Position numbers and translations under genes: made by a program. From contig CAYNNF010000003.1 of NCBI GenBank assembly GCA_964398685.1, positions 11,184-61,854 on the forward strand: DNA of 50,671 bases. Reading direction: 5' to 3'. Source of the DNA: an uncultured Candidatus Saccharibacteria bacterium. GTDB lineage: Bacteria; Patescibacteriota; Minisyncoccia; JBAYJV01. The notes below the pieces were generated by a model that worked only from the letters and a program-made list of their open reading frames with translations, searched no databases and was not told where the DNA came from. Below, piece after piece: positions 5,218-43,858 of this stretch (within the stretch, counting starts at the first letter, position 1; each line of letters begins with the position of its first letter).

Positions 5218-6192
5218 ATGGCATATCTAAAAACTATAAATCAACAGCGATATTTGAAAATAGCGCTTTTTTATTTTTTAGGTTTTTTCTTGTCATTTAT
5301 CTTCTGGCTTTTAATAAAGGTAAATTTTGATTTAGTTTTTTTAATAAACGGTGGCATGACAAGTTTAATTATAAGTTTTCTTTCCCTTCTCTTTTTTTGC
5401 TTATTTTTTGCCTTCTTTGCAAATTGCGCCTATCTTCTAAAAAGTTTTTATTTAACATCAGGATTAATTTTATTAGTCAATGTGCCGTATTTTGTTATTT
5501 TCGGCCTTAATCTTTTTGCTTTTGAAGGATTTTTAATTCTAATATTATTGTTTTACATTTGGGGCAAAAGAATAAATCATTATGATAAACAACATGCTCC
5601 TTTTAATCCCCTAATTAGCGGCAGAATTGGCCTAAGATCCGCGGTTACAATTTTTCTGCTTGTTATCTCTTTTTCTTTTTATGTTGCGATTGCTTATGAA
5701 GGAGAAGCCGGTTATTTCATCCCTCGTCTTGAAAAGTACACAGTTAATTTAAGCCATCAAGGGCTAAGCCTGCTTATTCCGGGATATAATAAAAACATAA
5801 AGATTGATAATGCTATTCATTTAATTTTAAAAAATAAATTCTGGCGAAAGTTTATCACTGCTGAAGACGAAATAAATCCATCAGATCCTCAGATAATTCT
5901 TCTGACAAGAAAATCTCTTGAGGATAAACTTGGCATTTCTCTAAACAATGAATCGGCTGATTATTTAATAAGCTATTTAGTAAAGAACTATGTAGGGGAT
6001 ACTTTGATGAAATATCAAAATATTTTCTCTGGCGCAGCTGCCTTAGCTTTTTTCCTTTTCTTAAAATTATTTTCTTGGGCATATTATTTTTTAATCCGAG
6101 GTCTTTCCTGGGTTTGGCTTAGATTGTTCTTGCTTACGAAAATCGTTAGTAAAAAAACCGAAACGATAGAAATAGAAAAAATAGTTATTTAA
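5218..6192 (+). CDS. Hypothetical multi-pass membrane protein
   Basis: Long ORF with several hydrophobic helices and a start 5 nt after the upstream stop codon. No recognisable motif. Confidence 0.6.
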   Translation: MAYLKTINQQRYLKIALFYFLGFFLSFIFWLLIKVNFDLVFLINGGMTSLIISFLSLLFFCLFFAFFANCAYLLKSFYLTSGLILLVNVPYFVIFGLNLFAFEGFLILILLFYIWGKRINHYDKQHAPFNPLISGRIGLRSAVTIFLLVISFSFYVAIAYEGEAGYFIPRLEKYTVNLSHQGLSLLIPGYNKNIKIDNAIHLILKNKFWRKFITAEDEINPSDPQIILLTRKSLEDKLGISLNNESADYLISYLVKNYVGDTLMKYQNIFSGAAALAFFLFLKLFSWAYYFLIRGLSWVWLRLFLLTKIVSKKTETIEIEKIVI

Positions 6193-6249: not shown

Positions 6250-7296
6250 TTAAAGTTTTTTTTCGCTTTCAATTGCTTGATAAATTTTCTTTTCAATGGT
6301 TTTAGCAATTTTTAGATTTTTCCGTAAATACTCGCGCGACATTTCAACTCCCTGCCCCAGTTTTTTGCCGTCAAAACTTAACCAAGATCCAGCTTTTTTA
6401 ATCACATCATATTTTACGCCCGTATAAATTACATCGCCCAAGTAAGAAATACCTTCATTGTAAAGAATGTCAAATTCTGCGGTTCTAAAAGGAGGCGCGA
6501 CTTTATTCTTAACAACCTTGGCTTTAACTCTCACGCCAATAACTTCCTCGCCTTTCTTAAGTTGAGCCGCTTTTCTGACCTCAATTCTGACTGAAGAATA
6601 AAATTTAAGCGCTTTGCCCCCCGGAGTAGTTTCAGGATTACCAAACATAATTCCAATCCTCATCCTAATTTGATTAATAAAGACAATGCTTGTTCCGCTT
6701 TTTGCCACAATAGCTGTTAATTTTCTTAACGCATGAGACATAAGTCGGGCCTGAAGACCAATCTGTTGATCTTCCATTCGGCCTTCAATCTCAGCCCGCG
6801 GAGTCAAGGCGGCCACCGAGTCAATGACAATTAAATCAACTGCCCCTGAGCGCACCATCGTTTCAACAATATTAAGCGCTTGTTCGCCCGTATCAGGTTG
6901 AGATATCAAAAGATCATCTATTTTGACTCCAATCTTTTTAGCATATTCAGGGTCTAAAGCGTGTTCAGCATCAATAAAAGCAACAACACCGCTTTTTTTT
7001 TGAGATTCCGCAACAATATGCAAGCTTAGTGTGGTTTTTCCCGATGATTCTGGTCCATAGATTTCAATAACTCTTCCTTTGGGAATCCCCCCAATTCCTA
7101 AAGCAATATCTAAAGATATTGAACCAGTTGGAATACTGTTGACATCGACTTTTTTTGCTTCTCCTAATTTCATAACCGCGCCCTCGCCATATTTTTCTTT
7201 GATTTCGTCAACGACAGCTTGAATTTTTTTCTCTGTATCGCCAACTATTTTTTCTTTAATTGTTTTTTGTATTTTTGGTTCTTTTTTTGAAGTCAT
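6250..7296 (-). CDS. recA: Recombinase RecA
   Basis: Walker [31 protein letters not shown]. Full-length RecA-like. Confidence 0.97.
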
Positions 7297-11350: not shown

Positions 11351-14300
11351 CTATTTTTTTAATCCTGTCCCTGCCGGAATTAATTTACCAATAATAACAT
11401 TTTCCTTGAGGCCTCGCAGTTTGTCTATTTTACCCTCACAAGCTGCATTAATCAAGACCCTTGCTGTTTCTTGGAACGAAGCAGCAGAAAGAAAACTCTC
11501 GCTTGAAAGCGAAACCTTAGTAATTCCCATTAAAAGCTCAGTTGCCGTTGCTTTATCTTTCTCTTTAAGTCCCTCATTGACTTCCACTAAAATATCCCGT
11601 TCCACTATCTGTCCGCTTAAAAGCTTAGTTGATTTTCCATCAATAACACGAAAACGAGAAAACATTTTTCTGGTAACAACCTCAATATATCTTTCATCAA
11701 TAGCTGCTCCCTGGAAAAAATAAATATTCTGCACTTCTTTGATAATATAACGCTGCACATCTTGTTTTGTTCGTAAGCGATAAAGCGCTTTGAGGTCAAG
11801 ATGTCCATCTGACAGCCTTTGTCCTTTAGTAACAAGATCTCCAACATTAACAAAAACTCTTTTGTTTAAAGGCAGTGAATAAAAACGTTTATTGTCTTTT
11901 TTAGTTTTATGTTTTTTGGGATTAGAATCAAGAATACTTTCGTTTATTTCAATGGTTATTTCTCTTTTCTTGCCAATTTTTTCAATATCAACAACCTTGC
12001 CGTCTACTTCTGAAATTAAAGCCCGTTCATGAGGCGTCCTTAATTCTAAAATTTCCTCAACACGAGGCAATCCCTGAGTGATATCTCCTTCACCAGCAAC
12101 ACCGCCAGCATGAAAAGTTCTCATCGTTAACTGAGTTCCCGGTTCGCCAATTGATTGGGCAGCTACTATGCCAACAGTAGCACCTATTTCAACGAGTTTA
12201 TTTGTGCCTAAATCATAGCCAAAACATTTTTGGCAAAGCCCATGTTTTGCTTTACAGCTTAATGAAGATCTAATTTTAATTTTGTCAATGCCGGTATCAG
12301 CAATTTTTTTTGCCGTTTCTTTATCAATAAGATCGCCTTCTTTAGCAATAATTTTTCCGGCATTTTTAATATCTTCTAAAATTGTTCGTCCGACTAATCG
12401 AGTTTCAAATCCAATCCCAATATCTTCACTATCTTTTAATTGCATCGTGATACCCTCTGTGTCGCCGCAATCAACTTCTCTAATAATTATATCTTGACAT
12501 ACATCAACAAGGCGGCGAGTTAAATATCCCGCAACAGCAGTTTTCAAAGCAGTATCTGTTGTTCCTTTTCTAGCGCCATGAGTTGAAATAAAATATTCAA
12601 GAACATTAAAACCTTCTTTAAAGTTTGATAATACGGGCAATTCAATTATTTCTGAAGCAGGATTAATAACAAGCCCTTTAATGCCTGACATTTGAGTAGT
12701 CTGACCCCATGATCCTCGCGCTCCAGAATCAAAAATATGAAAAATAGGCCCATCTTTAGGCAATACTTGAGGAACTAACCTAGATATCCTGTCAATAGCA
12801 GTAAACCAATTATCAATCACCTTGGTTTTTCTTTCTTCTTCTGTCAGTAATCCATCTTGATAATGCTTATTAATTTCTTCAACTTTTTGGACTGCTTCTT
12901 TTAAGATATTCTTTTTTTCAGGAGGGGTAATTAAGTCGTCAAACCCCCAGCTAATACCTGATTTCGTTGCATAATGGAAACCAATATGCTTAATACGATC
13001 AATAATTGGACCTACTTCTTTGTTCTCATATCTATCAATAATGCCAGCAATTATTTTTTGCAGGCCTTTTTTGTTTAGAGTTTTATTAACAAATGGTTCG
13101 TCTTCGGGTAAATTATTATTGAGAATAATTCTTCCTAAGCTAGTTTCAGTTAATTCATCCGAATTGGGTAAAAATAACTTAATTTTAGCCTTGAGATTAA
13201 TTTTATCAAAATCATAAGCAAGATAAGCTTCTTCAGGCGAGCTAAAAACAGAACCTTCTCCCTTAAGTCCTTCTTCTATCTTAGTCATCCAATAAATTCC
13301 TAAAACAATATCTTGAGTGGGATTAATAATGGGATGACCCGTTGCTGGTTTTAGTAAATTAGCGCTAGGTTTCATTATTTTCTCTGTTTCTTTCTGGGCT
13401 CTTTCGGAAATAGGAAGATGGACAGCCATCTGATCACCATCAAAATCAGCATTAAAGGCCTGGCAAACTAAGGGATGAAGTTTTATGGCATTACCTTCAA
13501 TCAAAATCGGTTTAAACGCTTGTATGCTGAGCCGATGTAGAGTTGGAGCGCGGTTCAAAAGGATGTATTTATTTTTAATAACCTCTTCTAAAATATCCCA
13601 AACCTCGTCTGATCCTTCTTCAATAAAATGACTTGCCGCCTTGATATTGGGTGCTAATTCTTTTTCATAAATGAGTTTGTGAATAATAAATGGCTTAAAT
13701 ATTTCAAGCGCCATTTTTTTAGGCAGACCGCATTCGTCAAGCTTAAGGCTTGGGCCAACTATAATAACCGACCTGCCTGAATAATCTACTCTCTTGCCCA
13801 AAAGATTTTGTCTGAACCTTCCTTGTTTTCCTTTGAGCATATCAGCTAATGATTTTAGAGCGCGGCTTTGAGCGCTAGCAGTACGAACTTCTTTGCCTTT
13901 CCGCGCCGAATTATCAATTAACGCATCCACTGCTTCTTGAAGCATTCTTTTCTCATTGCGCAAAATAACTTCTGGAGCTTTAAGTTCTTGCAATCTTTTC
14001 AAGCGATTATTGCGATTAATGACCCTACGATAAAGATCATTAACATCTGATGTTGCAAAACGTCCTCCATCTAACTGGACCATAGGCCTTAAATCAGGAG
14101 GAATAATGGGAAGGATTGTCCAAAACATCCATTCGGGCCTCATTTTATTTAAGAAAAAGGATTCAATTAAATCTAACTGACGCAGGATTTTCTTTTTTTG
14201 CGGTCCAGTAACTTTTTCTAATTTATTTTTAAGATAGGCCCTGTCTTTTTCTAAATCAATTTGTTCCATCATTTGCCGAAGCGCCTCCGCCCCAATACCC

Positions 14301-14953
14301 GCCTCAAACACCTCAGCATACTTATGGCTAAGACCATAATATTCAATCTCAGAAATAACCTGACCTTTGGCAAGCCGTCTTATTTCTTCGCGCGTTTTAT
14401 TGCGTTTTAATTCTAATTTTTTTAATTCTTTATTCTTGTTTTTGGTGGTTAATTTTTGTTTTTTAAGGGCCTTCTTTTTGGTTTTAAATTCATTGTCAAT
14501 ATTTTTTAAAACTTCTTGGCGCGCTTGATCGTCCACGCTGATAATAACATAACTCGTAAAATAGATTACTCTTTCTAAATCTTTAATAGAAATATTCAAA
14601 AAGAGGCTAATTTTTGAAGGAACGCCTCTCAAAAACCAAATATGGGAAACAGGACAAGCTAATTTAATATGCCCCATACGTTCGCGCCTTACCGAAGAAG
14701 TTGTCACTTCAACGCCACATTTATCACAAACAATGCCCTTATAACGAATTTTTTTATATTTACCGCAATAACATTCATAATCTTTTTCCGGACCAAAAAT
14801 GCGTTCGCAAAAAAGACCATCCCGTTCAGGACGATGAGTACGATAATTAATCGTTTCTGGTTTGGTAACTTCGCCAAAAGACCATTCAAGAATTTTTTCC
14901 GGAGAAGCAATTTTAAGTTTTATAGCTTCAAAATCCTGAATTGTTTCTTTCAT
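11351..14953 (-). CDS. rpoC: DNA-directed RNA polymerase subunit beta'
   Basis: NADFDGDQMAVH catalytic motif and N-terminal Zn-finger cysteines. 1200 aa. Confidence 0.98.
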   Translation of the reverse strand: MKETIQDFEAIKLKIASPEKILEWSFGEVTKPETINYRTHRPERDGLFCERIFGPEKDYECYCGKYKKIRYKGIVCDKCGVEVTTSSVRRERMGHIKLACPVSHIWFLRGVPSKISLFLNISIKDLERVIYFTSYVIISVDDQARQEVLKNIDNEFKTKKKALKKQKLTTKNKNKELKKLELKRNKTREEIRRLAKGQVISEIEYYGLSHKYAEVFEAGIGAEALRQMMEQIDLEKDRAYLKNKLEKVTGPQKKKILRQLDLIESFFLNKMRPEWMFWTILPIIPPDLRPMVQLDGGRFATSDVNDLYRRVINRNNRLKRLQELKAPEVILRNEKRMLQEAVDALIDNSARKGKEVRTASAQSRALKSLADMLKGKQGRFRQNLLGKRVDYSGRSVIIVGPSLKLDECGLPKKMALEIFKPFIIHKLIYEKELAPNIKAASHFIEEGSDEVWDILEEVIKNKYILLNRAPTLHRLSIQAFKPILIEGNAIKLHPLVCQAFNADFDGDQMAVHLPISERAQKETEKIMKPSANLLKPATGHPIINPTQDIVLGIYWMTKIEEGLKGEGSVFSSPEEAYLAYDFDKINLKAKIKLFLPNSDELTETSLGRIILNNNLPEDEPFVNKTLNKKGLQKIIAGIIDRYENKEVGPIIDRIKHIGFHYATKSGISWGFDDLITPPEKKNILKEAVQKVEEINKHYQDGLLTEEERKTKVIDNWFTAIDRISRLVPQVLPKDGPIFHIFDSGARGSWGQTTQMSGIKGLVINPASEIIELPVLSNFKEGFNVLEYFISTHGARKGTTDTALKTAVAGYLTRRLVDVCQDIIIREVDCGDTEGITMQLKDSEDIGIGFETRLVGRTILEDIKNAGKIIAKEGDLIDKETAKKIADTGIDKIKIRSSLSCKAKHGLCQKCFGYDLGTNKLVEIGATVGIVAAQSIGEPGTQLTMRTFHAGGVAGEGDITQGLPRVEEILELRTPHERALISEVDGKVVDIEKIGKKREITIEINESILDSNPKKHKTKKDNKRFYSLPLNKRVFVNVGDLVTKGQRLSDGHLDLKALYRLRTKQDVQRYIIKEVQNIYFFQGAAIDERYIEVVTRKMFSRFRVIDGKSTKLLSGQIVERDILVEVNEGLKEKDKATATELLMGITKVSLSSESFLSAASFQETARVLINAACEGKIDKLRGLKENVIIGKLIPAGTGLKK

Positions 14954-14995
14954 AAGTTTATAAAAAAAGTAATATTGTGTTAATTTCTCCTGTCT

Positions 14996-17900
14996 TTATC
15001 TTCCGTCTTCCTCTCTCTTTAAAATCTTTTTCCCTAAAAGTTCAATTGAAAAACCAAGACCTCTGAGCTCATTAAGTAAAACATTAAATGAAGCAGGAAT
15101 GTTAGAATTTATAATTTCTTGACCTCTAATAATTGCTTCGTAAGCCGCTGCGCGGCCTAAAACATCGTCCGATTTAATCGTTAACATTTCCTGAAGAGTA
15201 TAAGCCGCTCCATACCCTTCTAATGCCCAAACTTCCATTTCTCCAAAGCGCTGACCGCCAAACTGCGATTTTCCTCCAAGTGGCTGTTGAGTGATTAGAG
15301 AATAAGGACCAATAGAACGCATATGGATTTTTTCACTGACTAAGTGATTCAATTTCATCATATAAATGTATCCAACTGTTACTGGTTGATCAAACTTTTT
15401 GCCTGTTCTTCCATCGTAAAGATCAAATTTGCCTGTTTCCGGATAATTGGCTTTTTTTAATTCATCTCTTATTTCTGATTCTTTTACTCCCGAGAGAGAC
15501 GGACTTAATGCGCGGCATCCTAAAGATTTAGCAATCATGCCTAAGTGAGTTTCAAGAATTTGACCAATATTCATACGCGACGCTACTCCCAGCGGATTAA
15601 GGACAATATCAACAGGCGTACCATCTTTTAAGTGAGGCATATCTTCTTCTGATAACACTTTAGAAATAACGCCTTTATTTCCATGACGTCCTGACAATTT
15701 ATCCCCAACTTCTATCTTCTTAAATAATGCTACTTCAACTTGAACGCTCTTAATAACGCCCGAAGAAAGTTTATCTCCTTTATCTTGAGAAAAAACGCGA
15801 ACACCAATAACACGCCCTTTTTTACCATGAGGCAAAGTCAAGGAACTATCCTTGATATCACGAGCTTTTTCTCCAAAAATTGACCTAAGTAATCTTTCTT
15901 CAGAAGTTAAATCTGTTTCTCCTTTGGGGGAAATTTTTCCAACAAGAATATCTCCTTCCTTAACTTGCGCCCCTATTCTTACTATTCCTTCTTCGTTAAG
16001 GTCTTTTAATCTTTCTTCTCCTACATTGGGAATGTCGGGCGTGGTCACTTCGGGGCCCAAGCGAGTATCCCTTACATCAATCATAAAATCTTCAATATGA
16101 ATTGAGCTGAAGCGATCATCTCTGACCACTTTTTCTGAAATAATAATAGCGTCTTCAAAATTAAATCCTTCCCAAGAGATAAAAGCAACTAAAAGATTCT
16201 GGCCTAATGCAAGGACATCGCCATCAATTGCTGGTCCATCTGCCAAAACTTCGCCTTTCTTCACCCTATTTCCTTTCTTCACTAAAGGCCGCTGATGAAT
16301 ACAGGTATATTGATTAGATCTCCTAAAATTAGCAAGAGAATATTCTTTAATTTTATTAGCTTTTGTTTCTTTAACAATTATTTTTTGAGCATCAGCATGC
16401 ATTACTATACCGGCATTTTCGGCCGTAACAATCATGCCTGAATCAATGGCTGTCCTTTTCTCCATTCCAGTTCCCACGAAAGGAGCTTCTGGTATTACAC
16501 AAGATACCGCCTGGCGTTGCATATTTGAACCCATGAGCGCGCGATTGGCATCATCATGTTCTAAGAAGGGAATTAATGATGTCGCTACCGATATTGATTG
16601 ATTTGGCGCAACATCTACAAAATCCACTTTTTCGCTTTCTATAAGGCCTGGTTCAGTTTTAATACGAGCTTCCACTTTTTTGTTTTTAAAAAAGTTTTTA
16701 TCATCAAGGGGCTCTCCAGCAGGAGCAATAACATAATTTTCTTCTTCATCAGCAGTTAAATAAACTACTTCATCAGTAACCTTGCCACCCTTAACTTGCC
16801 AATAAGGAGTAATTAAAAACCCGTATTTGTTCAAGGAAGCGTATGTAGAAATATGGTTAACAAGCCCAATATTAGGTCCTTCAGGCGTTTGAATGGGACA
16901 TAGTCTTCCATAATGGCTTGGATGAACATCGCGTACTTCAAAACCAGCTCTTTCTTTGGTTAATCCGCCAGGACCCATAGAAGAAACCCGACGCTTATGT
17001 TCAAGCTCTGCAAGAGGATTGACCTGATCCATAAACTGAGAAAGCCGAGAAGATATAAAAAATTCCCGCACAACTGCCGCAAGAGGTCTGATGTTAATCA
17101 GTTGAGCGGGAGCAAGGGTATAAATATCTAAAGTGCTCATTCTGTCTTTAATAATTCTCGTCATGCGCGCAAAGCCGACTTGAACGCGATTAAGTAAAAG
17201 TTCTCCTACACACTTAATTCGCCTATTGCTTAAATGATCAATATCATCAGGCCTTGATTGAGGGTTTTGATTAAGCTTAATTATTTCTTTAACAATTAAA
17301 ACAATGTCTTTAATAGAAAGAATTCGTTCAGAAAAACCAATTTTTTGTTTTTTCTTTGAGTTTTGTTGAGGACTGTTTAATCCAAGACGTTGTTTAATTT
17401 TCCATCGCCCTACTTCTGATAAATCATATCGCTCAAAGCTAAACATTGCCTTGAGCAACGATCTAGCATTATCCGGCGTTGCTAATTCACCGGGTCTAAT
17501 TCTGCGATAAATATCAATAAGTCCTTCAGGTTGATTATTGGTAAGATCTTTTGCCAGTGAAGCGTCTATATAATCAAACTCATCGGTTTTAAATGAATCT
17601 TTAAAAATTTCTTTAATATTATCATTAGTGTCAATAAGGGGTTTTTCTTCTTCGCGAATTCCTGAAAATGCCCTGAGAAATGCTGTAACGGGCATTTTAC
17701 GCTTACGATCAACTTTGACATAAATAGTGTTATGGTTATCCGTTTCAAATTCCAGCCAAGCGCCTCGATTGGGAATAATTTTGGCGCCAAAATAATGACG
17801 GCCATTTTCATATCGAGAATTAAAAAACACGCCCGGCGAGCGCGCAAGCTGCGATACAATAACTCTTTCTACCCCATTTAAAATAAAAGTTCCGCGATTT

Positions 17901-18238
17901 GTCATCAACGGAAAATCTCCCATAAAAATATCTTGCTCTTTAGTCTCTGCTGTTTTCTTGTTTTCGAGATTTAAACGAACTTTCAACGAGGCTTCGTATG
18001 AAGCATTATGCTCTCTGGCGCTAATTTCGGTATGCTTAGGTTCATCTAAATAATAGTCAATAAAAGACAACTCCAGTTCTTTGCCTGAATAATCAACGAT
18101 GGGAGAAATTTCTTGAAACAGACTCTTGAGCCCTTCTTCAAAAAACCATTTATAGGAATTGAGCTGAATTTCAATCAAATTGGGAAGAGGCAAGTTTTTT
18201 TTAGGAAAACCCGAAAATTTTTTCTCTTCCATACTCAA
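14996..18238 (-). CDS. rpoB: DNA-directed RNA polymerase subunit beta
   Basis: SGRHGNKGVISKV, GGQRFGEMEVWALE and other RpoB blocks. 1080 aa. Confidence 0.98.
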   Translation of the reverse strand: MSMEEKKFSGFPKKNLPLPNLIEIQLNSYKWFFEEGLKSLFQEISPIVDYSGKELELSFIDYYLDEPKHTEISAREHNASYEASLKVRLNLENKKTAETKEQDIFMGDFPLMTNRGTFILNGVERVIVSQLARSPGVFFNSRYENGRHYFGAKIIPNRGAWLEFETDNHNTIYVKVDRKRKMPVTAFLRAFSGIREEEKPLIDTNDNIKEIFKDSFKTDEFDYIDASLAKDLTNNQPEGLIDIYRRIRPGELATPDNARSLLKAMFSFERYDLSEVGRWKIKQRLGLNSPQQNSKKKQKIGFSERILSIKDIVLIVKEIIKLNQNPQSRPDDIDHLSNRRIKCVGELLLNRVQVGFARMTRIIKDRMSTLDIYTLAPAQLINIRPLAAVVREFFISSRLSQFMDQVNPLAELEHKRRVSSMGPGGLTKERAGFEVRDVHPSHYGRLCPIQTPEGPNIGLVNHISTYASLNKYGFLITPYWQVKGGKVTDEVVYLTADEEENYVIAPAGEPLDDKNFFKNKKVEARIKTEPGLIESEKVDFVDVAPNQSISVATSLIPFLEHDDANRALMGSNMQRQAVSCVIPEAPFVGTGMEKRTAIDSGMIVTAENAGIVMHADAQKIIVKETKANKIKEYSLANFRRSNQYTCIHQRPLVKKGNRVKKGEVLADGPAIDGDVLALGQNLLVAFISWEGFNFEDAIIISEKVVRDDRFSSIHIEDFMIDVRDTRLGPEVTTPDIPNVGEERLKDLNEEGIVRIGAQVKEGDILVGKISPKGETDLTSEERLLRSIFGEKARDIKDSSLTLPHGKKGRVIGVRVFSQDKGDKLSSGVIKSVQVEVALFKKIEVGDKLSGRHGNKGVISKVLSEEDMPHLKDGTPVDIVLNPLGVASRMNIGQILETHLGMIAKSLGCRALSPSLSGVKESEIRDELKKANYPETGKFDLYDGRTGKKFDQPVTVGYIYMMKLNHLVSEKIHMRSIGPYSLITQQPLGGKSQFGGQRFGEMEVWALEGYGAAYTLQEMLTIKSDDVLGRAAAYEAIIRGQEIINSNIPASFNVLLNELRGLGFSIELLGKKILKREEDGR

Positions 18239-40101: not shown

Positions 40102-40149
40102 ATAGTTGAAATAAAAAACACAAACCCCAAAGCTAATACCTATTCTAAT

Positions 40150-40194
40150 ATATTGGGGTAAAAAAGAAAAGAGAGGGAAACCTATGCTTCCCTC
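40150..40194 (-). terminator. Intrinsic terminator of the 213-aa orphan gene
   Basis: Stem gagggaa/ttccctc (40173-40179 / 40188-40194), followed on the minus strand by ctcttttctttttt. It begins 13 nt after the stop. Confidence 0.65.
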
Positions 40195-40206
40195 CCTTTG
40201 TATCTC

Positions 40207-40848
40207 TTATCTCTTCACAAGAGAAATGGTATTGTCGATGTGATCGACATGTAGATAGTAATCAGGCGCAAGAGTTATCTTCTCCACTCCTGGCACACCT
40301 TTCATACTGCGCCCATTTTCGTCTCTTGGCCACACCATAATCGGTGGACCTTCGGGAATTCGGAGTGGCTGGCGTGCTTCGAAATTGATACTAATAGCAT
40401 GCTTATTTGGAATTTTCTCTCCATTTTCGTAGTAAGGATTGAGAAAAACCCTCGCCCTCCACATCGCAGTCGCGCACATCTCTCTGAGACTTCCAAGCGC
40501 AGAAACTCTTTCGTTCATAAAATTATCAGGAAGTTGCATGTCTTCGCTGCGAACGAAAACGAAACGAACCATCTGATATTTCCTGCTTGAATGTTTTGGA
40601 TCAATACGCTTTTGACAAAACGCATCAACTAGTTCGTATCCTGATCTTCCAAGATCTTTGGCAATGCCCAGAACAGAACAATTCTCGGTTGGCTCAATAA
40701 CAAGCTTTCCGTCTGATCGGCTTTTTCTTTCCGTTCTTTCTTGCGGAACTTCCTTCTCATGGCGACCGATCCATTCCGGAACGGCATTTCCATTCGAGAA
40801 GCTGAATTGCAGAACGATCATCCGCACAGAATTATCTATCTCAACCAT
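40207..40848 (-). CDS. Orphan hypothetical protein, compositionally foreign (about 50% GC)
   Basis: 213-aa ORF with a strong SD (AAGGAGG 5 nt before the ATG). By hand count, 40261-40320 has 30/60 G+C and 40441-40500 has 35/60, against 22/60 in 39901-39960. No motif recognised. Confidence 0.65.
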   Translation of the reverse strand: MVEIDNSVRMIVLQFSFSNGNAVPEWIGRHEKEVPQERTERKSRSDGKLVIEPTENCSVLGIAKDLGRSGYELVDAFCQKRIDPKHSSRKYQMVRFVFVRSEDMQLPDNFMNERVSALGSLREMCATAMWRARVFLNPYYENGEKIPNKHAISINFEARQPLRIPEGPPIMVWPRDENGRSMKGVPGVEKITLAPDYYLHVDHIDNTISLVKR

Positions 40849-40908
40849 TCTTGCCTCCTTATGGTTTTTAACTCTATTGTGAAGAACTTCAACGCCTCTT
40901 TTGTTATA

Positions 40909-40937
40909 AGTATATCATACTTTAATATAAAAAGCAA
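40909..40937 (-). promoter_or_regulatory. Candidate promoter of the orphan gene
   Basis: Minus strand TTGCTT (40937-40932), a 17-nt spacer, then TATACT (40914-40909). This would give a ~50-nt leader. Confidence 0.45.
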
Positions 40938-40952
40938 TAGTTTTAATGAAAA

Positions 40953-40973
40953 TTTGATGGCTAAGCCATCAAA
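40953..40973 (-). terminator. Perfect 10-bp inverted repeat after the RmlC-like gene (terminator or operator)
   Basis: tttgatggct-a-agccatcaaa, followed on the minus strand by ttttcatt. Confidence 0.5.
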
Positions 40974-41029
40974 CACTAACCGTCAAATATATCGTTTTTG
41001 AGTTGAATATTAAATTAAAAAATTTTTAA

Positions 41030-41641: not shown

Positions 41642-43858
41642 CTAAGACTTCTTAATATGCAGATTAAATCCTTCCGTTCTTTTCTTGATATTTATAATCC
41701 ATTGTTTGTTTTTTAAATACCAATCAATAACATCCGGTAAAGTTTTTTCAAATGTTTTAGTTGATTGCCATCCAAGATTTTTGTTTATTTTACTAGTATC
41801 AATGGAATATCTTCTATCGTGTCCCGGCCGATCATCTATAAAAGTTAATAAAGACTCTTTGCGTCCTAAAATTTTGAGAATTGCCCGAGCCACATCAATA
41901 TTATGCCGTTCTTGATCGGCGCCAACATTATAAACTTCTCCTATTGCGCCTTCATGTAAAATCTTATCAATCGCAATGCAATGATCTTCAACATAGATCC
42001 AATCTCTCACATTTTTACCATCCCCATACAAAGGAACCTTCTCACGCGCCAACGCTTTAAATAAAAAGAAGGGAATCATTTTCTCCGGATATTGATATGA
42101 TCCATAATTATTGGAACAATGTGTCACAATGACAGGAACTTTATGGGTTCTAAAATAGGCGCGACACATTAAATCGCCGCCTGCTTTTGCCGCCGCATAA
42201 GGAACATTTGGAGCGAAAGGACTGTCCTCTTTAAAATGTCTATCCTCATCTAATTCAACGGATCCGAATGTTTCGTCCGTTGAAATTTGAATCATTTTTT
42301 TAATTTTATATCGCTTAACGGCCTCAAGCAAAGTATGAACTCCGATAACATTGGTCATTAAAAACTCCCTCGCTCCACCATAAATACTTCTATCAACATG
42401 AGTATTATGAACTACAATATTACCAACGCCACAAACAAAATTATGTTTATTGGCTACTTCAATATCATAAACATAACCCTCGTAATCAACTTTTTTTTGT
42501 CTTTTAGAAAGCAGTGAAATTGTGTAGTCGTTCCCGAAAACAAGAGTATAAGCATCAAATCTTTCATCTTTATTAACGGTAAAATTCTTTCTTAGTAAAG
42601 TTAAAAGCAAAGAAATGCCTGTTGCTAGCTTTTTAGAATTTGTTGTATAGCGATATGTAATTGAATGTTTATTTTTAATAATCTGACCATCTCCTAAACA
42701 AAGATGTTCAAGAAACAGGTTTTGAAATTCTGAGCGAAGTTGAAAAATAAAATCTGGAATGAATTTATTTCTCGAATAAACTCCGCACATTTTTCTAAGA
42801 AAACCATAAAGCTTCTTATTGGAAACCGTAAGCTGATACCATCCTTCTTTTCTTTTAAAGAAATTTGGATTATATCCAAGTTTTTTGAAGTCTTCCGTTA
42901 ATAGCTTAATCCAATCTTCGTTGATATTGGTTATATTGGTAATGTATCCACCATTAGCCTTATTATAAGTAGTGCTGCCTTCTGTAATATGAGCTGCCAT
43001 TATCCTTAAGAGGCTTTTAAGTTTCGCTCCTTTGAAATTACCAAAAGAAGTCTTCTTGGGAATATGATTGATGTTTTTAATAGATAACAGTTCGGGATTT
43101 TTAGCAGGTGTTGTTAAATTCCCATCTATGTCATAAATAGAATGATTATTTGTTGCCGTTATTTCTCCCCATTTTTGATTAAGTTGAATGAGTTTTCCTT
43201 TATAATAGTGCCGGGAAATTTGTTTAATAGGTAACCAATAGCCAATGCCACCGTGATTAGCTAATGCCTTTAGATTAGAATTGTTTATGCTAATAATCTC
43301 TACGCCTTTAATTTTTACAACATTATGTTTACCATCTACGCTTAAGTTGAGAAAAAGTTCTTCTAATGTTTGAATCTTGATTTGACCTGCCTTATACAGT
43401 GGTAGATAAGTGTCATTACTTATGCTTTCTGCCGCCCAATTGACAACATAATCAATTTTGTTTTTTGCAAAGACATTGTCAACCTCTTTTTCGTCAGCAA
43501 TATCGCCTTTGATAAATTTATAGTGAGGATTTTTTTCAACTTCTTTTAAATTATCAAGATTACCAGCATAGGTAAGTTTGTCATAATTAATAATCTTATA
43601 ATTCGGGTATTTTTTTAAGATATATCTAATAAAATTGCTTCCAATAAATCCGGCTCCGCCACAAACTAAAACAGTCGCTTTTGCTCCGCCTATTTTGTGA
43701 AAATAATCCAAAAGCTCTTTCTTGGAAAGTTCAGTGACTACGCTTAATTCATCTAAACTCATTTTCCCTTCCTGATATAAATCCAAAAACTTTTTAAGTT
43801 TTTTCAAATAAGCGTCAGATGTATTTTTAAGTTGTAAATCCTTTTTTAATTTCCGCAT
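41642..43858 (-). CDS. rfbB: dTDP-glucose 4,6-dehydratase (RmlB) interrupted by an intein; N-terminal extension
   Basis: Exteins: GGAGFIGS Rossmann, VVNWAAE | THVDRSIYG, PYAAAKAGGD (YxxxK), DRPGHDRRY. The 738 aa total breaks down as ~337 aa RmlB, a 341-aa insert and ~60 aa of extra N-terminus. Confidence 0.9.
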   Translation of the reverse strand: MRKLKKDLQLKNTSDAYLKKLKKFLDLYQEGKMSLDELSVVTELSKKELLDYFHKIGGAKATVLVCGGAGFIGSNFIRYILKKYPNYKIINYDKLTYAGNLDNLKEVEKNPHYKFIKGDIADEKEVDNVFAKNKIDYVVNWAAESISNDTYLPLYKAGQIKIQTLEELFLNLSVDGKHNVVKIKGVEIISINNSNLKALANHGGIGYWLPIKQISRHYYKGKLIQLNQKWGEITATNNHSIYDIDGNLTTPAKNPELLSIKNINHIPKKTSFGNFKGAKLKSLLRIMAAHITEGSTTYNKANGGYITNITNINEDWIKLLTEDFKKLGYNPNFFKRKEGWYQLTVSNKKLYGFLRKMCGVYSRNKFIPDFIFQLRSEFQNLFLEHLCLGDGQIIKNKHSITYRYTTNSKKLATGISLLLTLLRKNFTVNKDERFDAYTLVFGNDYTISLLSKRQKKVDYEGYVYDIEVANKHNFVCGVGNIVVHNTHVDRSIYGGAREFLMTNVIGVHTLLEAVKRYKIKKMIQISTDETFGSVELDEDRHFKEDSPFAPNVPYAAAKAGGDLMCRAYFRTHKVPVIVTHCSNNYGSYQYPEKMIPFFLFKALAREKVPLYGDGKNVRDWIYVEDHCIAIDKILHEGAIGEVYNVGADQERHNIDVARAILKILGRKESLLTFIDDRPGHDRRYSIDTSKINKNLGWQSTKTFEKTLPDVIDWYLKNKQWIINIKKRTEGFNLHIKKS
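42404..43426 (-). mobile_element. Intein (341 aa) with LAGLIDADG-type homing endonuclease domain
   Basis: Block A SISNDTYLPL (Ser1), block B TATNNHSIY (TxxH), C-terminal YVYDIEV...NIVVHN followed by Thr+1. Endonuclease-like LLRIMAAHITEGS and LFLEHLCLGDG. Confidence 0.85.

Follow-up and report, generated by a model that had tools for sequence, protein, structure and literature searches.

A G+C-rich gene between rmlC and grx in a Saccharibacteria genome is probably a long-term resident from a Patescibacteria protein family not yet characterised

The gene examined here, named X, lies at positions 40207-40848 (minus strand) of a 50,671-nt stretch of DNA, hereafter the window, from contig CAYNNF010000003.1 of an uncultured Candidatus Saccharibacteria bacterium, and it encodes a protein of 213 amino acid residues. 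An earlier sequence-only reading had described this open reading frame (ORF), with an N-terminus and an internal peptide that were both recovered from the ORF list, as a compositionally foreign orphan recently acquired, possibly from a higher-GC host or phage. Overall, the results are best explained if X is a genuine protein-coding gene that has long resided in its bacterial family, a reading that we consider probable, and sequence comparison places it in a sizeable, Patescibacteria-restricted protein family that is without description so far. The genome (794 kb in 24 contigs, 98.9% complete) contains a single copy of X, and this window copy is referred to as W.

The gene order GT2-rmlB-rmlC-X-grx-trxB-gdh-secDF was found to recur in L001, L005, L010 and L016 (G001, the same genus) and in L034 (G003, another genus). 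With W included, the placement of X between rmlC and grx was observed in six assemblies from two genera of one family. The identity of X to the syntenic copies was 61–69%, against 67–92% for the flanking proteins; for G003 the values were 40% for X and 52–74% for the flanks. Maximum likelihood trees were constructed for X and for the concatenated RmlC, Grx and TrxB proteins, and both showed the common backbone (L034,(L001,(W,L005,L010,L016))), with branches about twice as long for X; disagreement was confined to poorly supported internal nodes. The ratio of nonsynonymous to synonymous substitution rates (dN/dS) of X was 0.11–0.17, with dS ranging from 1.1 to not computable (saturated). As judged from gene order, X already sat between rmlC and grx before at least two genera diverged from their ancestor, and it has been inherited vertically in the family of the window under purifying selection, changing about twice as fast as its neighbours. 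A chimeric assembly at the locus is excluded by sequence comparison, because the synteny is repeated in independent assemblies. Recent transfer is refuted by the combination of synteny across two genera, a congruent tree and saturated dS; the conserved synteny across the lineage, which the sequence-only reading had itself named as the observation that would make X an old resident gene, was found, and its recent-foreign interpretation fails on it. No repeats flanking X and no mobility genes were found in the window. At L033 (G002:C6:36000-44000, in a genome of ∼600 kb), gdh comes directly after rmlC, with 305 nt between them, and the block of X, grx and trxB is missing there.

The G+C content of X was 44.4% (first, second and third codon positions, GC1, GC2 and GC3: 54, 38 and 41.1%), compared with 34.3% for the window and 34.5% for the genome. 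The richest 300-nt segment within the gene reached 45%, and the value of about 50% estimated earlier by hand count was too high. Among the 697 ORFs of at least 100 amino acid residues in the genome, X took rank 10 by GC content (z = 2.6) and rank 15 by GC3 (z = 2.4). Its GC3 was 0.41, against 0.32 expected from its amino acids and the codon usage of the genome (z = 3.0, rank 25 of 697). The compositional deviation of X is real but moderate. The X protein has an Arg content of 9.0% against 4.2%; Pro is also high, Lys, Leu and Ile are low, and the Leu codons TTA and TTG are absent from the gene. High expression was considered as a cause of the GC3 excess and was rejected: GC3 is ordinary both in the ribosomal proteins S5 and L15 (0.27–0.28) and in the pair of ORFs at 11351-18238, the largest in the window (0.26–0.27).

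A similar excess was observed across the family. At 17 of 18 loci with good flanks, the GC3 of X was above that of every neighbouring ORF, with a mean difference of +19.5 points. When 62 metagenome loci were added, giving 41 non-redundant loci for the GC comparison, X was GC-richer than its flanks in 36 of them (median +8.7 points; more than +5 points in 34; Wilcoxon p = 2.5e-8). The GC content of X followed that of the host loosely (r = 0.52). In the syntenic orthologues the synonymous sites are saturated, yet the GC3 of X is 0.37–0.60, compared with 0.26–0.31 for the host. The high G+C content is a trait of the family, made up of an Arg/Pro-rich composition and G/C-ending codons, and no scar of recent transfer. 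The claim of a foreign composition held in so far as X is an outlier in its genome, but the deviation is moderate and family-wide and does not mark a recent transfer. An amelioration model of horizontally acquired genes was reportedly proposed by Lawrence and Ochman in 1997; by analogy with that model, simple amelioration after one old transfer would not explain the GC3 excess. Since the excess has outlasted synonymous saturation in most hosts, it would be actively maintained, the candidate causes being mRNA-level selection and a bias linked to recombination. The family would lend itself to testing whether selection or biased conversion acts on synonymous sites in tiny AT-rich genomes.

As for the family itself, a word-indexed search returned 25 homologues of X, and an exhaustive search of cluster representatives (50% identity) returned 538 at E ≤ 1e-3 (402 at E ≤ 1e-10). 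For the search of loci across genomes, a 26-sequence alignment of X was used. Nearly all representatives are 190–235 amino acid residues in length. The alignment of homologues contains 8 invariant and 26 near-invariant columns, mainly Arg, Asn, Trp, Phe, Gly and Pro. Hits in named GTDB genomes numbered 11, and every one came from Patescibacteria (Nealsonbacteria, Taylorbacteria, Berkelbacteria, Minisyncoccales, ‘Saccharibacteria’ and unclassified Parcubacteria). Profile scans of X with Pfam, PHROGs and NCBIfam gave zero matches, and the PADLOC scan gave one noise match only (E = 0.019). When 70 family members were scanned with Pfam, no Pfam family was present in more than two of them. Among the PDB sequences, no match better than E = 1 was obtained by phmmer (single sequence) or hmmsearch (profile). 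The description of X as an orphan was therefore right in that no described family matches it, but not in its implication of a gene without relatives, given the homologues recovered here. Lineage-restricted families without known function in the Candidate Phyla Radiation (CPR)/Patescibacteria have reportedly been surveyed, for example by Meheust et al. in 2019. X resembles such families in being found only in Patescibacteria among named hits, in having no Pfam or NCBIfam model and in being annotated as a hypothetical protein; it differs from them in not being core (∼2% of the sampled genomes), in its systematic GC/GC3 excess and in its conserved promoter and leader.

AlphaFold2 models were obtained for the X protein of the window (predicted local distance difference test, pLDDT, 90.6; predicted template modelling score, pTM, 0.86) and for a 43%-identical member (pLDDT 91.2, pTM 0.87). 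In both models the elements follow in the order β, α, β, α, β-β, long α, long β-hairpin and a β-rich C-terminal part. When the models were compared with PDB and BFVD by Foldseek, nothing was found at E ≤ 0.001 and the template modelling (TM) score was at most 0.3. The best PDB fold matches of the two models had E = 0.13–0.16 with TM ≤ 0.2, and the best BFVD match had E = 0.018 with TM 0.27. Weak local Foldseek matches to dTDP-sugar (deoxythymidine diphosphate sugar) C-3'-methyltransferases (TcaB9, KijD1 and MtmC) were seen with both models over ∼70 columns at 22% identity, and W adjoins dTDP-sugar genes. These matches are non-significant (E 0.25–0.9, probability ≤0.25, TM ≤0.16), X is without the S-adenosylmethionine (SAM)-binding domain of these enzymes, and the link to sugar genes is absent outside the bacterial family of the window. 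The likeness to a methyltransferase substrate-binding part was treated as chance. The family comprises hundreds of clusters with confident models and no detectable PDB or BFVD relative, in a phylum that is little understood. Its newness means that no described sequence or fold matches it, and no new biological mechanism is claimed.

Along the long hairpin the conserved residues alternate (W130-R131-x-R133...N137-P138 and S153-x-N155-x-E157-x-R159), and this alternation points to a conserved polar, basic face. Arg, Asn, Trp and Phe make up most of the conserved residues. The alignment showed no invariant His, Cys or acidic catalytic set, and no signal peptide or transmembrane segment was evident by eye. 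Tentatively, X may be a soluble cytoplasmic α+β protein that binds an anionic ligand or nucleic acid, an assignment that we hold with low confidence. The binding surface would be the conserved Arg/Asn/aromatic face of the long β5-β6 hairpin (WRxR...NP, SxN.E.R), and strong, separately controlled expression would place X among accessory and not housekeeping factors. A redox pair formed by Cys57 and Cys124 and tied to grx/trxB was also considered and was rejected: the cysteines are not conserved in P0020 and P0022, and the linkage to grx/trxB is confined to one family.

Several points weigh against the account given so far. In G002, which belongs to the same family (L033), X, grx and trxB are together absent from the locus, and loss and gain are indistinguishable there. 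The X gene of the window is among the mildest cases of GC excess (GC3 z ∼2.4–3), and at five loci (L058, L059, L068, L070 and L095) the gene is AT-richer than its flanks; such a mixed pattern suits a host-decoupled composition, as expected from transfer, as well as it suits selection. A prophage-like cluster is found among the GC-rich ORFs of the genome, so that GC-richness does mark foreign DNA here. As regards the protein, the statement that no fold matches covers PDB and BFVD, and the functional guess is drawn solely from residue conservation and secondary structure, with no neighbour, domain or fold in its support.

X was found in 5 of 61 relatives and in 7 of 400 other genomes sampled phylum-wide, always as a single copy. 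Outside the family of the window it lies amid unrelated housekeeping genes (ybeY/ftsA, htrA, ruvB, rluD/gmk and SIMPL). No neighbour of X was common across lineages, and synteny was stable inside each lineage. A same-strand tRNA gene was observed to end 130–260 nt upstream of X at 7 of 56 loci, compared with 0.43 expected (p = 3e-7), namely at L019, L023, L038 (Arg), L049, L053 (Lys), L062 (Glu) and L083 (Leu). Zero relatives of X were found in 50,697 phage records and zero in IMG/VR, and neither an integrase nor a transposase nor a phage gene adjoined X at any locus seen. A phage origin of X, one of the two sources proposed earlier, was dropped, since these collections contain no relative. 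Rarity, unrelated contexts and tRNA adjacency together suggest an old lateral spread of X as a one-gene unit, the vehicle not being identified among the loci and viral sets. Over deep time, lateral insertion of the gene on its own, often beside tRNA genes, would probably account for the gain of X. A weaker form of the foreign claim survives in this respect, as the data suggest that the X family has been laterally mobile over deep time. Inference of function from neighbours was abandoned, because no neighbour recurs across lineages and the small downstream ORFs look spurious; a Xer-type recombinase in L027/L028 was likewise discarded as a partner of X, being lineage-specific.

The alternative that survives best regards X as a mobile accessory gene of a Patescibacteria pool, inserted repeatedly as a one-gene islet, often by tRNA genes, with a composition set by the pool and by repeated allele exchange and not by selection in each host. 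It is favoured by the patchy occurrence, by housekeeping contexts that are unrelated from lineage to lineage, and by adjacency to differing tRNAs (Arg, Lys, Glu and Leu). The loose tie to host GC, the five AT-richer loci, the faster divergence of X than of its flanks and the perfect 44-nt direct repeats around X in L001 also fit. However, no integrase, transposase or phage gene stands beside X at the loci seen, the viral collections hold no relative, and the gene shows a vertical history inside the family of the window and stable synteny inside lineages. We regard such a pool as a serious possibility that is nonetheless somewhat doubtful. Both tRNA adjacency and direct repeats around X occur only in lineages other than that of the window copy.

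According to a further alternative, selection for a stable, highly folded mRNA, for example one with a long half-life or resistance to AU-directed RNases, keeps the synonymous sites G/C-rich. The coding sequence of X was more stably folded than its synonymous-codon shuffles at 18 of 18 loci (mean z = −2.8), and the z-scores of 12 independent lineages averaged −3.1, compared with −1.1 for 45 neighbouring genes (Mann–Whitney p = 2e-4). The survival of the excess beyond dS saturation agrees with such selection. Each z-score, however, was calculated from only 16–20 shuffles, and some control genes reach z < −4. The consensus that RNAalifold produced for six orthologues was weak (−63 kcal/mol across 827 columns, covariation term −3.8) and showed no positionally conserved structure, and no Rfam match was obtained. 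The folding excess is a hint and no explanation of the GC3 excess, and selection on the folded mRNA is considered possible but unlikely as its cause.

Recent acquisition from a higher-GC bacterium or phage, with the GC excess as unameliorated donor composition, is highly improbable. The rank of X for GC in its genome, a GC-rich prophage-like cluster on contig C13 and the possession of an own promoter and terminator speak in its favour; the six-assembly synteny in two genera, the congruence of the X tree with the flank tree, a GC3 kept at 0.37–0.60 against 0.26–0.31 in spite of saturated dS, the lack of phage or IMG/VR relatives and a window without flanking repeats or mobility genes all contradict it. 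X resembles horizontal islets and ORFans in being a solitary outlier with its own signals and a patchy distribution, often by tRNA genes. Foreign genes are usually AT-richer than their host. X, in contrast, exceeds its host in GC, holds the same place in different genera, has a tree congruent with that of the flanks, and keeps a deviation that outlasts saturation; it also differs from such islets in being without mobility genes and in having hundreds of homologues. Among the traits of a recent islet, a deviating composition was found, but not an empty site in relatives, a tree conflict or mobility, att-like or phage traits. The case advises caution, as a GC spike with private signals is insufficient to show recent transfer. 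Next to no credence can be given to a structured non-coding RNA with an incidental ORF: an island of high GC in AT-rich surroundings that has a private promoter and terminator would suit a large RNA gene, as would a transcript folding z of −4.1, but the ORF length of ∼210 amino acid residues is conserved in hundreds of clusters with a protein-type conservation pattern, a dN/dS of 0.11–0.17 and confident AlphaFold2 models, and there is no conserved RNA structure and nothing better than E = 0.14 in Rfam.

The transcription signals of the long-resident gene were read from the sequence of the window and compared with those of its orthologues. A sigma-70-type promoter (TTGCTT-17-TATACT; 40909..40937, minus strand) consists of the −35 hexamer TTGCTT (40937..40932), a 17-nt spacer and the −10 hexamer TATACT (40914..40909). 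The −10 element is of the TG extended type (TGATATACT, 40917..40909), a TG that the sequence-only reading had not mentioned. A promoter scan returned 7 promoter-like sites, against a chance expectation of 6.7, and the X promoter lay under the threshold of the scan, its −35 element TTGCTT scoring just 3/6. By itself the promoter motif is weak evidence, and the comparison of orthologue sequences is much stronger. The −35 element (TTGAC/TTGAT), the TG-extended −10 element and the Shine-Dalgarno (SD) sequence align in the four syntenic orthologues L001, L005, L010 and L016, and an exact TTGACA was present upstream of X in 46% of the family regions, compared with 3.8% of control windows (12-fold enrichment). 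The SD sequence AAGGAGG (40854..40860, minus strand), also conserved among the orthologues, precedes the start codon, ATG in the window, by 5 nt. In many family members the start codon is apparently GTG or TTG, preceded by a strong GAAAGGAGG-type SD, the starts having been picked by SD score.

The gene is followed by an intrinsic terminator (40168..40199, minus strand) with a 14-pair stem and a T-run (TCTTTTTT). In the orthologues a hairpin and a T-run occur at the identical position, with stem bases unlike those of the window. The promoter, SD and terminator proposed earlier are accordingly all present and conserved in the syntenic orthologues, and this conservation of position bears out the self-contained transcription unit. 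By comparison with these orthologues, X appears as a monocistronic unit: its conserved promoter is of the extended −10 type, a leader and a strong SD precede the coding sequence, and an intrinsic terminator closes the unit. The separate terminator-like palindrome reported after the upstream rmlC-like gene was also found (40952..40974, minus strand), with a 10-pair stem (GTTTGATGGCTTAGCCATCAAAT, read 40974..40952) and a weak T tail, and it is present in the same-genus orthologue L016 as well. The spurious overlapping ORFs reported for X amount to five, of 54–86 amino acid residues. On the 3' side of the X terminator, the block TATATTAGAATAGGTATTAG (40133..40152, minus strand) is nearly invariant in five orthologues and is probably a candidate −10 region of a grx promoter, as suggested by its conservation.

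The 5' untranslated region (leader) of X, ∼54 nt in length, contains the motif AAGTTCTTCACA (40878..40889, minus strand), which was recognised by alignment with the orthologues. Its core, AGTTCTTCACA, is common to W, L005, L010 and L016, with L001 retaining AGTTCTT only, and it occurs once in the whole genome. GTTCTT occurred in 35% of the leaders, from 9 of 29 lineages, compared with 7% of controls. A leader acting as an anti-SD element or RNA thermometer, in which the CU-rich motif would mask the SD, found no support, as the mean probability of SD pairing was 0.61, against 0.60 with shuffled upstream leaders, at 50 loci (partition function, Wilcoxon p = 0.88). The leader of the window also resembles the Rex-like site TGTGAA-N4-TTCACA; a Rex-like operator was rejected, because the genome has neither a Rex homologue nor a Rex DNA-binding domain and contains the motif just once. 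No TGTGA-N6-TCACA site was found in the genome, CRP/FNR proteins not having been searched for.

In one clade of the family (L019, L021, L023, L025, L038, L052, L053, L060, L069 and L072, with L054 and L055 also listed), a 22-bp leader hairpin lies ∼110 nt before the start of X and has a conserved upper stem (TTTTGC...AAAACTG). In this hairpin 95.6% of the cells are paired, compared with 35–53% when the partners are slid, and 8 compensatory pairs were counted, compared with 3.0 ± 1.2 after shuffling (8 reached in 0 of 500 shuffles). Over 469 kb, a covariance model placed the hairpin nowhere but immediately upstream of X, also at loci that had not entered the model building; it found no hairpin in the window leader. 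No match for the clade hairpin was obtained in Rfam. From its sequence covariation the clade hairpin is a candidate new cis-regulatory motif. It is like the cis-regulatory 5'-leader RNA motifs (riboswitch or protein-binding) in that it covaries in the leader of one clade, and unlike them in having no Rfam family, in being absent from the window leader and in being a long simple hairpin and no multi-helix aptamer. The promoter, the leader and the clade hairpin of X offer concrete experimental handles.

A broader proposal, which we think improbable as a whole, would join these elements. X would found a new fold and family of ultra-small episymbiotic bacteria; its mRNA would be under selection, as seen in saturation-surviving G/C-rich synonymous sites and excess folding, and it would be governed by its leader (AGTTCTT and the clade hairpin), possibly bound by X itself. 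The gene would then be a self-regulating accessory module spreading by tRNA-side insertion.

Some further observations concern the loci compared. In L001, two perfect 44-nt direct repeats (AATACTTGACATTTAAAACCATGTGGTCACCCAGTGACCACATT; 5761-5804 and 6710-6753), each holding a hairpin and TTGACA, bracket X and its promoter and have no counterpart in the window; they may represent an intergenic element resembling a miniature inverted-repeat transposable element (MITE) or the trace of a rearrangement. In L010 (6600-7768), three extra small genes, one of them for a ParE-type toxin, lie between gdh and secD and are not present in the window.

Elsewhere in the genome of the window, stronger GC/GC3 outliers than X were located outside the window at C3:68254-68967, C21:4979-5752, C2:66825-67838, C9:29201-31425 and C13:9234-13927. 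A DUF5701 protein with a GC content of 54.6% is encoded just outside the window; the other outliers include an unknown protein of 257 amino acid residues, a secreted class-II cAMP-phosphodiesterase-like protein and two Cys-rich secreted paralogues. The prophage-like cluster on C13 contains an ORF of 493 amino acid residues with only a weak DEAD-helicase Pfam match, together with ParB/methylase-like and serine-recombinase-like ORFs that were labelled by eye only.

The RmlB-like dTDP-glucose 4,6-dehydratase of the window (41642-43858, minus strand) has 738 amino acid residues, compared with 397 in its orthologues in L001 and L010 and 323 in L005, and this difference points to an intein-like insert of ∼340 amino acid residues. 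The RmlB orthologue of G002 (L033, 1389-3608) has 739 amino acid residues, and its length suggests that the insert is common to another genus.

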